This document shows, piece after piece, positions 43,801 to 45,036 of a DNA stretch of 64,000 nt. Source of the DNA: Escherichia coli (GTDB lineage Bacteria > Pseudomonadota > Gammaproteobacteria > Enterobacterales > Enterobacteriaceae); assembly GCF_030384885.1 (NCBI RefSeq), contig NZ_CP128613.1. The stretch is one strand, 5' to 3'. Position 1 is the first letter of the stretch, and each line of letters begins with the position of its first letter. The translations under genes and the position numbers were made by a program. The notes under the pieces were generated by a model. It made no database searches. It had not been told where the DNA came from and worked only from the letters and a program-made list of their open reading frames with translations.

Positions 43801-43833
43801 TGTTAATAACATAAATTCTGGAAAAATAAATTT

Positions 43834-43860
43834 CCCCTATCGATATATATGGGATAGGGG
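43834..43860. terminator. Stem-loop between ytfJ and ytfI (likely ytfI terminator)
   Basis: cccctatc-gatatatatgg-gatagggg hairpin with a T-rich tract on the minus-strand side. Confidence 0.6.
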
Positions 43861-43900
43861 AATTAAGTCTCTGAGTTTTTACGCCGAACTCATACTAGTA

Positions 43901-44824
43901 TCAATAACCCTTATTCGCGTTTAACGGTTTTACCTCTTTTTTAAACGCTTCAATGGTAGATTTATATTTCTTGTGAATCTTTTCTTCGGTATAATTACCG
44001 TTTGCGGCCAGATTTGCACTTACAATCGCTTCCACTTGCTCGGTTATTTCCACTTGTTGGTAACCTGCATCAACCAGAAAATTATAAATAAGAGAGTAAT
44101 CTTCACCCTGCAAAAAAATATAAGAGCCAGTTCGAAGTTCCTCATCCCCTCCATAGATTTTAAGAGCAAAGCCCAAAGATTCTATGACCATGGCATAATT
44201 TCTATTATTTATTTCCTCGCAAAAATACCATCCTTCACATTCTTTAATGCTACCTTCTGGCCCTTCAAGTTCAAATTTACCCCGTTTTAATTTGCTTACT
44301 ACATTCTCCAAATAAGCAGAATTGTAAGATAAGTTACCCGCCGCCTTCCGAAAATAACCGTTAATCCTTTCAGGTATGTCAGACTGTTTTTTCTGCAAAA
44401 TATCATAGGTATACAATCTTCTATTTTGTGCTAGTGGAAATTCACGGTTTTTAAAGTCTATAAATGAGTTATACTCATTTATTGTTATAGGGATTTCTTC
44501 GTATTCAAATCCAGTGCCTCGCAATGTCATTGTATATTCGGCACCGTTATCTTTAAGGCGGAAGCTGATAAGAAAATTATCCATGGAGTGAACGGTTTCA
44601 TCTTTTAATGAAAGCACCTGATAACTATTTTTATCGATCTGTGTTGCTCTAAGAAAGAACTCCCTTAAAATTAACAAACTATCATAATTCGAAATCCAAT
44701 CCCTTTTCTTAAATGCATGCTGAATATTATTAAAGAAATTATTTGAATGTATTTTTGTATGCGATGACTTTACAAATAACTCCACTGCACCAAAAAAATT
44801 ATTGTGTCTGATCTTGGGTAACAT
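43901..44824 (-). CDS. ytfI: Uncharacterized protein YtfI (AT-rich, no recognisable domain)
   Basis: 307-aa ORF at the ytfI position between ytfJ and cysQ; low GC. Confidence 0.7.
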   Translation of the reverse strand: MLPKIRHNNFFGAVELFVKSSHTKIHSNNFFNNIQHAFKKRDWISNYDSLLILREFFLRATQIDKNSYQVLSLKDETVHSMDNFLISFRLKDNGAEYTMTLRGTGFEYEEIPITINEYNSFIDFKNREFPLAQNRRLYTYDILQKKQSDIPERINGYFRKAAGNLSYNSAYLENVVSKLKRGKFELEGPEGSIKECEGWYFCEEINNRNYAMVIESLGFALKIYGGDEELRTGSYIFLQGEDYSLIYNFLVDAGYQQVEITEQVEAIVSANLAANGNYTEEKIHKKYKSTIEAFKKEVKPLNANKGY

Positions 44825-45036
44825 ATGACAACCTTATTATATTTGGTTATTCTATGTCGCCATTAAATATCTTATTAAAGAAGTAAACTATCAAAAAAAG
44901 CTCATTATTAAAACATAACTTATTAACGTTAGAATATTTACACTTTAAATACAATCCCTTTATATCTATAACTTTTTAGGTTGGAAACAAATCAGGATGG
45001 CAGAATCAGGAAATACACTGTTTCTGCCATATATAT

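Follow-up and report, generated by a model that had tools for sequence, protein, structure and literature searches.

The closest described counterparts of the ytfI islet are the H-NS-silenced strain-specific segments (Higashi et al. 2016, PMC4720273), which are likewise AT-rich and present or absent depending on the strain, and for which K-12 ytfI serves as a worked example (S10 Fig). ChAP-seq showed that K-12 ytfI is an H-NS-bound, strain-specific insertion from which H-NS spreads onto the neighbours, and that SE11 and SE15, which have no ytfI, show no such H-NS binding at the locus (PMC4720273). An elevated dN in comparison with core genes has been described for such segments (PMC4720273), and ytfI follows the same pattern. 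However, the ytfI islet is unusually small (one gene), old (species-level lineages) and located inside an overlap of core genes. Taxonomically restricted (ORFan) genes of Enterobacteriaceae resemble ytfI in being short, AT-rich and fast-evolving with no homologue outside one genus, whereas ytfI is longer (307 aa) than typical orphans, is under clear purifying selection and has conserved regulatory DNA. Single-gene anti-phage and abortive-infection islets similarly consist of one accessory AT-rich gene with its own promoter and a patchy distribution. In contrast to these, ytfI matches none of the known defence families, is not set in a defence island or prophage or beside an integrase, and has no known defence phenotype.

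The ytfI islet is an already known kind of feature, the K-12 copy having been published as an H-NS-bound insertion. As in other xenogeneic islets, the DNA is AT-rich relative to the host and polymorphic with an ancestral empty site, and the H-NS occupancy is that of the K-12 allele (ChAP-seq, PMC4720273). It presents a tidy case of foreign AT-rich DNA tolerated under H-NS silencing as a long-lived presence/absence polymorphism. The analysis here adds that the ancestral state of the site throughout Enterobacteriaceae is empty, that insertion into an 11-bp overlap would have given two core genes new 3' ends and terminators, that ytfI appears to predate the E. coli species split without drift towards the GC content of the host, and that the protein has no relative among ~15 billion proteins and a sharply two-part constraint. 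These points may help workers on y-genes and orphan genes.

The window is the whole 64-kb stretch of E. coli DNA that was analysed. Its interval 43801-45036 is the exact gap between the ytfJ stop codon (43800, plus strand) and the cysQ stop codon (45037, minus strand), and contains a single long ORF (43901-44824, minus strand, 307 aa). The spacer on the ytfJ side is 100 bp long, and the 212-bp spacer on the other side (44825-45036) lies 5' of ytfI and 3' of cysQ. The surrounding genes (paeA, ytfK, ytfJ, cysQ and cpdB) are housekeeping genes, with no defence island or mobile element among them. The features of the locus are as follows.

43246..43800, plus strand: ytfJ, the left flank (184 aa), with its last codons (..QKLLK) and stop (43798-43800) formed at the insert junction.
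43793..43796, no strand: left copy of a putative 4-bp target-site duplication, TCAA in the window and K-12 but still TTAA in L012, the most divergent lineage.
43797..45036, no strand: inserted DNA of 1,240 bp (~33% GC), missing from ~70% of E. coli and from Salmonella, Klebsiella and E. marmotae.
43832..43862, minus strand: predicted ytfI intrinsic terminator, a hairpin TTCCCCTATC / GATAGGGGAA followed by AUUUAUUUUU on the minus strand (10-bp stem, -20.6 kcal/mol, z -3.2).
43901..44824, minus strand: ytfI coding sequence (307 aa, predicted soluble, pI 6.4).
44825..45036, minus strand: ytfI upstream region (212 bp, 25.9% GC), presumed promoter and H-NS nucleation region.
44832..44835, minus strand: Shine-Dalgarno-like AAGG, 7 nt 5' of the ATG; GAGG in the most divergent allele.
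44866..44894, minus strand: candidate sigma-70 promoter TTGATA-17 nt-GATATT, a consensus match only, with both hexamers invariant in four aligned alleles.
44997..45030, minus strand: hairpin ATGGCAGAATCAG / CTGTTTCTGCCAT, inside the insert just past the cysQ stop (-17.0 kcal/mol, z -4.8).
45037..45040, no strand: right TTAA copy, whose positions 45037-45039 double as the complement of the cysQ stop.
45037..45777, minus strand: cysQ, the right flank (246 aa), a core gene with a dN/dS of 0.01-0.03.

The 307-aa ORF is an allele of ytfI that has diverged from the E. coli K-12 gene (b4215; WP_000937655.1, 312 aa), an uncharacterised y-gene found at the same ytfJ-ytfI-cysQ locus with the same orientation, insert boundaries and hairpins and an upstream spacer of similar length (211 bp in K-12 and 212 bp in the window). 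Aligned over 97-100% of their length, the two proteins share 75% of their amino acids (clusters of the K-12 type match at E = 1e-146), and the genes are about 84-85% identical in nucleotide sequence over the full length. By similarity as well as by position and junction, antisense to ytfJ, the window gene belongs to the YtfI orthologous group (K-12 b4215), and the name ytfI proposed in the initial annotation is right by orthology. The window allele differs from that of K-12 in its length, in its C-terminal tail (..LNANKGY against ..LPVLVRRKNSET) and in the heavily substituted residues 151-215. The window DNA is 100% identical to E. coli 2013C-4282, in which the gene is annotated as 'hypothetical protein' (RefSeq) and not as YtfI. 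Only about 20 complete genomes carry the window allele at an identity of at least 95%.

The GC content is 34.3% for the ytfI ORF (GC3 31.8%), 25.9% for the 212-bp spacer and 32.7% for the whole interval, compared with 51.0% for ytfJ, 54.1% for cysQ and 49.1% for cpdB (GC3 54-56%). The insert lies ~17 percentage points below its flanks. The window has a mean GC of 49.8% (sd 5.0 in 1,236-bp segments), and an equally low value occurs in just 0.7% of the 1,236-bp segments of the 64 kb, all at another AT-rich gene at ~4.6-6.4 kb. Of the 212-bp segments, 0.17% are as AT-rich as the ytfI spacer. These values bear out the initial annotation, which had described an ORF of 307 aa with a GC content well below its neighbours and about 210 bp of very AT-rich non-coding DNA before cysQ.

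The pangenome distribution shows that ytfI is accessory, being carried by 1,610 of 5,420 complete E. coli genomes (about 30%). The span from ytfJ to cysQ is 1,287-1,288 bp in all the 41 sampled genomes without ytfI. At the empty site, the ends of ytfJ and cysQ share 11 bp, an overlap observed in E. coli A0 34/86, S. enterica, E. marmotae and Klebsiella. Since the E. coli genomes that lack ytfI have this overlap in common with Salmonella, Klebsiella and E. marmotae, the site was ancestrally empty. The ancestral YtfJ has 185 residues and ends in HKLL[SN]K, whereas that of the carriers ends in QKLLK; the 185-aa form with the HKLL.. ending is also found in sampled Citrobacter, Raoultella, Enterobacter, Lelliottia and other enterobacterial genera.

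The left and right ends of the insert are flanked by TTAA on both sides in the most divergent lineage, by TCAA and TTAA in the window and by TCAA and TTAG in K-12. The putative duplication is just 4 bp long, in DNA that is AT-rich, and two of the three lineages have mutated forms of it, so that microhomology or chance may account for it. The ends of 43797-45036 are not joined by terminal inverted repeats, and the insert has no transposase or integrase. The lack of such repeats and of a transposase domain in the sole ORF speaks against an insertion sequence, MITE or transposon. Searches of phages, plasmids, viral contigs and proteins yielded no donor of the insert.

Taken together, the junctions suggest that an ancestor of several Escherichia lineages received a foreign segment of 1,240 bp, which inserted once, at a TTAA inside the 11 bp by which the convergent genes ytfJ and cysQ overlap. 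The segment would have brought one gene, ytfI, with two terminator hairpins and an AT-rich promoter region of 212 bp that has been conserved, and the junction would have rebuilt the end of ytfJ (..QKLLK) while leaving cysQ intact. The initial annotation had taken ytfI for a horizontally acquired single-gene islet; the accessory distribution, the ancestral empty site, the foreign composition, the flanking TTAA and the published H-NS-bound insertion of K-12 support this proposal. Neither homology to a housekeeping family nor uniform presence with a core-like GC, the outcomes that it had named as contrary, was found.

Orthologous ytfI alleles occupy an identical junction in three Escherichia lineages that are 5-11% diverged, and every ytfI allele found sits at the ytfJ/cysQ locus. 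The dS of ytfI (0.13-0.86) and that of cysQ (0.06-0.66) rank the same allele pairs in the same order, and the ranking by flank identity is congruent with that by ytfI divergence. Because the three diverged lineages share the junction and the dS of ytfI tracks that of cysQ, the divergence data indicate that the acquisition of ytfI is old and not recent. After the insertion, inheritance appears to have been mostly vertical, as a presence/absence polymorphism. Ytf​I is present in ~30% of E. coli, in the lineage of the window (roughly 95% identity) and in one further species-level lineage. The vertical descent is deduced from four alleles, and homologous recombination of the flanks between lineages would yield a similar picture. 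E. marmotae is empty in spite of a depth similar to that of the most divergent lineage, so that losses or recombinational replacement must be invoked. Balancing selection was considered on the basis of a raised divergence of the flanks and rejected, since the whole window, beyond the ytfI flanks too, is ~95% identical to K-12. Truncated YtfI variants are common in the protein database, where, for example, one 251-aa cluster counts 729 members and Shigella contributes fragments; this suggests weak selection in some lineages. In ETEC1738 an IS1 stands in place of ytfI, and in L005/L006 an IS5-family element abuts the gene.

The substitution patterns indicate that ytfI is a real protein-coding gene. 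The alleles differ by 150-224 substitutions without loss of the ORF (random-placement p of 0.003 or less); the ORF stayed open in 0.26% of the random-placement trials for the window and K-12 alleles and in 0 of 5,000 for the other two pairs. The indels among the full-length alleles are all frame-preserving. The dN/dS is 0.24-0.45, which is 10-30 times the cysQ value. The constraint is distributed unevenly. Residues 91-150 are conserved (pN/pS at most 0.12 for the majority of allele pairs), whereas residues 151-215 evolve fast, with 35.5 non-synonymous and 8.5 synonymous changes compared with 23 and 28 in residues 1-150 (Fisher p = 0.0003, window vs. K-12) and a local pN/pS of up to 1.2-1.7. 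YtfI has a conserved N-terminal half and a fast-evolving segment of residues 151-215. No signal peptide or membrane segment was seen by eye; YtfI is a real, predictedly soluble protein of roughly 36 kDa that is restricted to Escherichia/Shigella.

The upstream spacer has a length of 210-212 bp, and its sequence is conserved beyond synonymous sites across the three lineages. Its identity is 89% between the window and K-12 and 80% between the window and the most divergent lineage, with one or two gaps, which is better than dS predicts. The hairpin at 44997-45030 is identical in the window, K-12 and the most divergent alleles and is likely the terminator of cysQ. The hairpin at 43832-43862 lies 32 nt past the ytfJ stop on the plus strand; both hairpins of the insert are stable and would now terminate ytfI/ytfJ and cysQ. 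An Rfam scan showed no non-coding RNA inside the islet. Near-matches to the H-NS motif TCGATAAATT number six in the insert compared with 1.6 expected, and the TpA density of the insert is twice the window mean. Most likely, H-NS on the AT-rich DNA keeps ytfI transcriptionally quiet, as extended from K-12 to the window allele. A single, old insertion of a foreign islet, with mostly vertical descent, a likely quieting by H-NS and a real protein product, is as a whole the probable account of the locus.

No YtfI family, structure or homologue outside Escherichia/Shigella was found. The family searches were run with one allele and with six alleles; Pfam, PADLOC and PHROGs returned sub-threshold or noise matches only and NCBIfam no match, in agreement with the lack of a recognisable motif reported in the initial annotation. 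The Pfam matches are to LisH (PF08513; 19.2 bits vs. a cut-off of 21.6, residues 244-257) and DUF4844 (E = 0.09). The LisH match recurs in five of the six alleles, which are not independent, and membership was rejected on the Pfam gathering threshold. PADLOC (PADLOC-DB 2.0) gave a single noise match to Cas6b (E = 0.005, 14.6 bits over 40 residues), and the PHROGs matches have E values of at least 0.0017 (phrog_3250). No match to an immunity family (SUKH/Imm-type) in Pfam was found in the six alleles, nor an adjacent toxin ORF. A word-indexed search of 5.8 billion clusters recovered only YtfI of E. coli/Shigella and its fragments, and a HMMER profile search of 1.84 billion representatives of ~15 billion proteins recovered only YtfI fragments apart from one spurious match. 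A 1,441-aa TPR-like repeat protein was rejected as a relative, its score being the spurious sum of 13 repeats. Tblastn searches gave no match in phages and, among plasmids, only chromosomes or chromosome-derived replicons filed as plasmids; an IMG/VR scan gave no match, and the conserved N-terminal module gave only noise against phages at E values up to 10. A profile search of the PDB sequences returned nothing at E values up to 10. The AlphaFold2 model of full-length YtfI from a six-sequence alignment has a pLDDT of 46, and its best Foldseek match in the PDB (Pur-alpha, E 0.17, TM 0.13-0.23) is meaningless.

The presence of ytfI at the same place in three diverged Escherichia lineages would also be expected if the gene were ancestral and the empty site had arisen by deletion. 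However, the junctions of the outgroups contradict an empty site as the derived state: the overlap of 11 bp found in the empty E. coli recurs in Salmonella, Klebsiella and E. marmotae, the outgroup genera share the 185-aa YtfJ, the carriers share the derived YtfJ end made by the junction, and the insert departs from its flanks in GC content. Deletion is accordingly an extremely improbable origin of the empty site. Once inserted, ytfI could have become a silenced foreign remnant without a useful function, which persists by inertia and is slowly lost. Its lack in ~70% of the genomes, the frequent truncated forms and Shigella fragments, the IS1 replacement and the abutting IS5-family element, the high dN/dS relative to cysQ and the H-NS silencing in K-12 are all consistent with a remnant. 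However, the ORF has remained open through the substitutions, the indels keep the frame, residues 91-150 are constrained in most allele pairs, and lineages that are 11% diverged have all kept the Shine-Dalgarno sequence, the promoter hexamers and the length of the spacer. A remnant is unlikely.

As to function, YtfI is at best guess an accessory protein that is expressed under certain conditions and that most backgrounds can do without. The sole experimental lead on its function is an altered hypochlorite tolerance in one K-12 screen. K-12 ytfI was among 23 ASKA clones able to grow in NaOCl at three times its MIC, overexpression in MG1655 raised the MIC, and the Keio mutants of most selected genes had a lowered MIC (PMC8228696); ytfI is also listed among genes responding to multiple stressors (PMC9501238). 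These results could point to a hypochlorite or oxidant stress-tolerance factor that is switched on upon relief of H-NS silencing. However, the phenotype comes from one screen that picked out genes of many unrelated functions and may be non-specific, and the screen offers no mechanism, complementation or dose-response for ytfI. Moreover, the allele alignment shows neither a redox motif nor a conserved pair of cysteines, and 70% of E. coli lack the gene, which leaves such a role quite doubtful. Being accessory, AT-rich, H-NS-bound and taxonomically restricted, ytfI also resembles many defence and immunity genes, and YtfI might be a conflict-type protein, either a single-gene factor of anti-phage defence or abortive infection or an orphan immunity protein that counters a toxin. 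The strongly uneven constraint between residues 151-215 and 1-150 would fit such a protein; that the conserved N-terminal module acts and residues 151-215 recognise a variable partner is a rather unlikely arrangement. However, the hint of a defence role in the initial annotation found no evidence: PADLOC gives no credible match, the context is not that of a phage, plasmid or defence island, and ytfI has no partner gene. The single PADLOC match is noise, Pfam has no immunity or toxin family for YtfI, the one-gene islet stands among housekeeping neighbours, phages, plasmids and viral contigs hold no kin, and none of the literature found that mentions ytfI concerns phage defence. A local pN/pS near 1 fits relaxed constraint equally well. 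A conflict-type protein of either kind is thus rather unlikely too, and it is very unlikely that YtfI founds a new Escherichia-restricted single-protein conflict system with an unseen fold, an N-terminal effector and diversifying residues 151-215, silenced by H-NS until needed. Should the fast segment reflect an arms race, ytfI could be entered in defence or immunity screens at little cost, as K-12 carries the gene and Keio and ASKA reagents exist.

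Comparison of the ytfI locus with complete genomes showed that the window DNA is 100% identical to that of E. coli 2013C-4282, in which the ORF is annotated as 'hypothetical protein'. The ORF is a diverged form of ytfI, a known but uncharacterised y-gene, because the region shares about 85% DNA identity with K-12 (and about 1,600 other complete genomes), its product is 75% identical in amino acids to K-12 YtfI over the full length, and the gene order paeA-ytfK-ytfJ-ytfI-cysQ-cpdB is common to both. The features of the locus are as follows.

43246-43800, plus strand: ytfJ, left neighbour of ytfI
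43797-45036: ytfI insert of 1,240 bp, from the junction comparison
43832-43862: hairpin inside the insert near its left end (-20.6 kcal/mol, z -3.2), followed on the minus strand by AUUUAUUUUU
43901-44824, minus strand: ytfI ORF, 307 aa, the sole long ORF of 43801-45036
44894-44866, minus strand: candidate sigma-70-like promoter TTGATA-17-GATATT, a consensus match only
44997-45030: hairpin inside the insert near its right end, just past the cysQ stop (-17.0 kcal/mol, z -4.8)
45037-45777, minus strand: cysQ, right neighbour of ytfI

The base composition of 43801-45036, the entire gap from the ytfJ stop codon to the cysQ stop codon, is clearly aberrant (GC 32.7%). The ytfI ORF has a GC of 34.3% and a GC3 of 31.8%, compared with 49-54% and 54-58% for ytfJ, cysQ, cpdB and paeA. 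The 212-bp spacer from the ORF start to cysQ, which is upstream (5') of ytfI and downstream (3') of cysQ, has a GC of 25.9%. These values confirm the initial annotation, which described an AT-rich 307-aa ORF and about 210 bp of very AT-rich DNA before cysQ. Across the 64 kb, only 0.7% of windows of equal length reach such a low GC, every one of them at another AT-rich gene near 4.6-6.4 kb. This second poorly characterised AT-rich gene, a 581-aa ORF (4659-6404, minus strand) adjoining an ornithine carbamoyltransferase gene (3597-4601), lies where the GC of the window is lowest (about 29-35%), and its sole match is a sub-threshold SopA-like central domain (21.7 bits vs. a cut-off of 27). A DUF898 membrane-protein gene (982-2205, minus strand) lies in a second low-GC stretch (about 33-39% GC).

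The flanks of a ytfJ-ytfI-cysQ query were found in 5,420 of 5,426 genomes, and the pangenome distribution shows that ytfI, the middle of the query, is accessory (1,610 of the 5,420, 30%). In sampled genomes without ytfI, ytfJ and cysQ together span 1,287-1,288 bp, with an 11-bp overlap of their 3' ends. The same overlap is present in Salmonella enterica, E. marmotae and one Klebsiella species, whose 185-aa YtfJ ends in ..LLHKLL[SN]K; a 185-aa YtfJ with an HKLL-type ending also occurs in the other enterobacterial genera sampled. Since the outgroups have the overlap and the 185-aa YtfJ, whereas the YtfJ of ytfI carriers has 184 aa and ends in ..LLQKLLK, ytfI was inserted into an ancestrally empty site. 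Together with the aberrant GC and the 30% carriage, the ancestral empty site supports the earlier proposal of a horizontally acquired single-gene islet.

The ancestral junction (E. marmotae form) reads ..AAG TTG CT[T AA]T AAA TAG.., and the carrier junction reads ..AAG YTR CT(T/C) AA, then the insert (ATAA..), then TTAA TAAATAG... The new ytfJ end (CTC AAA TAA) is completed by the first insert bases, and the cysQ stop is kept by the right-hand TTAA. TTAA is intact at both ends in L012, the genome with the most divergent ytfI lineage, while the ends are TCAA/TTAA in the window and TCAA/TTAG in K-12. The 4-bp duplication in AT-rich DNA weakly hints at a transposition-like mechanism; no terminal inverted repeats were found at the insert ends and no transposase in the insert. 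The 43832-43862 hairpin, also directly past ytfJ, has the form of a classic intrinsic terminator for ytfI. Because a stable hairpin lies near each end, the insert would have given terminators to ytfJ and cysQ, which once ran into each other. In ETEC1738, ytfI and the ytfJ 3' end are replaced by IS1 (L002 2364-3443), and some genomes with the P0006 allele type, though not L012, carry an IS5-family transposase (DUF772 + DDE_Tnp_1) directly downstream of ytfI (L005 4967-5421, L006 4146-5126). Thus, the ytfI locus attracts IS elements.

All ytfI alleles, namely the K-12 type, P0003 (K-12-like), the window type and the 68%-identical P0006/L012 type, were found at one locus. The L012 genome is labelled E. 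coli; with a flank identity of only 88.5-91% to the compared E. coli genomes and of 89% to E. marmotae, P0006/L012 is a separate species-level lineage. Pair for pair, the dS of ytfI follows the dS of cysQ, the core gene next to it.

dS of ytfI and cysQ by allele pair
K-12 vs. P0003: ytfI 0.13, cysQ 0.06
Window vs. K-12: ytfI 0.37, cysQ 0.24
K-12 vs. P0006: ytfI 0.71, cysQ 0.66
Window vs. P0006: ytfI 0.86, cysQ 0.54

On these comparisons the insertion is old, not recent; most simply, it happened once, and ytfI was then passed on mainly by vertical descent, with absence in particular lineages. As a possible alternative to such descent, ytfI could have been spread or replaced through homologous recombination of the flanks. 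The GC of ytfI is still 33-36% in all three lineages, indicating no amelioration.

Compared over 19411-54835 with K-12 and with A0 34/86, which lacks ytfI (loci L009/L010), the window is about 93-98% identical (mean about 95%), and K-12 and A0 34/86 are about 98.5% identical at the ytfI locus. Low identity is thus a property of the whole window rather than of the ytfI locus alone, indicating that the window (2013C-4282) derives from a diverged lineage within E. coli, which would fit a cryptic clade. A second variable spot is the ppa-ytfP spacer (33992-34126), only about 134 bp in the window, where K-12 has the chpS-chpB toxin-antitoxin pair and A0 34/86 has esiB. From 54835 to about 61331, a gene cluster (short-chain reductase to FAD-dependent oxidoreductase) is shared with A0 34/86 but not with K-12; the TRAP-transporter genes DctQ/DctM (61353-63171) come next, where A0 34/86 has an MFS transporter instead.

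From the pattern of substitutions, ytfI is most likely a real gene. The ORF is unbroken through 150-224 substitutions; when the observed substitutions were placed at random and the frame scored as open or not, it was open in 0.26% of trials for the window and K-12 and in 0 of 5,000 for the other two allele pairs. Indels in the full-length alleles are in frame, and a Shine-Dalgarno sequence (AAGG/GAGG) 6-7 nt 5' of the ATG is kept in all alleles. The dN/dS between alleles is 0.24-0.45, compared with 0.01-0.03 for cysQ. Constraint along YtfI is uneven, with a pN/pS of at most 0.12 in most allele pairs at residues 91-150 (..FKNREFPLxQNRRLY..); at residues 151-215 it is 0.7-1.7 when the three alleles closer to one another are compared. 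Non-synonymous to synonymous differences are 35.5:8.5 at residues 151-215 vs. 23:28 at residues 1-150 (Fisher p = 0.0003).

As first noted, the protein has no recognisable motif: no family match exceeded threshold in Pfam, NCBIfam, PADLOC or PHROG. Homology searches assign no function to YtfI. A 5.8-billion-cluster search found no homologues beyond E. coli/Shigella, a full HMMER profile search over 1.84 billion representatives returned only YtfI fragments and one spurious repeat protein, and no sequence matches were found in the PDB and no relatives in phages, viral contigs or genuine plasmids. Scanning of 100,044 species-representative genomes yielded only L012 and one mis-binned E. coli contig. 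This contig (L011, JAIJJM010000759.1, 1,501 bp), assigned to a metagenome-assembled genome named 'Collinsella sp.', consists of E. coli ytfI DNA (86% DNA and 77% protein identity to the window) and is almost certainly a binning contaminant. Structure prediction suffered from the shallow alignment: the full-length model reached a pLDDT of 46 and the C-terminal domain model 66, the latter predicting a five-stranded meander followed by helices. A LisH-like helix (..SLIYNFLVDAGYQQ.., residues 244-257), just below the Pfam cut-off in five of six alleles, may serve dimerisation or be a chance match. The initial annotation raised a possible defence or niche function, in favour of which the uneven evolutionary rate is the sole point; that YtfI matches no defence family, has no partner gene and lies in no mobile context counts mildly against such a role. 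In a K-12 NaOCl screen, ytfI overexpression from ASKA allowed growth at three times the MIC, and Keio mutants of the genes selected were reported to be more sensitive (PMC8228696). This single, broad screen is the sole experimental lead on ytfI function.

The spacer upstream of ytfI measures 210-212 bp in each of the three lineages, and the window spacer is 89% identical to that of K-12 and 80% to that of L012 with only 1-2 gaps, which is above the neutral-site expectation at the observed dS values. Both hexamers of the candidate promoter are invariant. The TpA density of the insert is twice that of the window. The high-affinity H-NS motif is TCGATAAATT, and the insert contains 6 near-matches to this motif vs. 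1.6 expected. ChAP-seq in K-12 showed H-NS on ytfI, spreading to cpdB, cysQ, ytfJ and ytfK, and no such binding in SE11 and SE15, both of which lack ytfI (PMC4720273 S10 Fig). Because H-NS occupies K-12 ytfI, the window allele is probably silenced by H-NS as well. In K-12, the ytfI region has also been a disputed sigma-32 ChIP-chip signal and has served to illustrate false-positive ChIP peaks (PMC3870955). Both ytfI and its description as a strain-specific insertion bound by H-NS have been published before; what stays of interest is that ytfI is a true orphan gene whose core and regulatory DNA are conserved, and that it occurs in a model organism for which reagents exist. Just beyond the islet, the cysQ-cpdB spacer contains a sequence that matches Rfam sRNA family ES239 over the full length (RF02756; 45844-45966, minus strand; 149 bits vs. 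a gathering score of 62).
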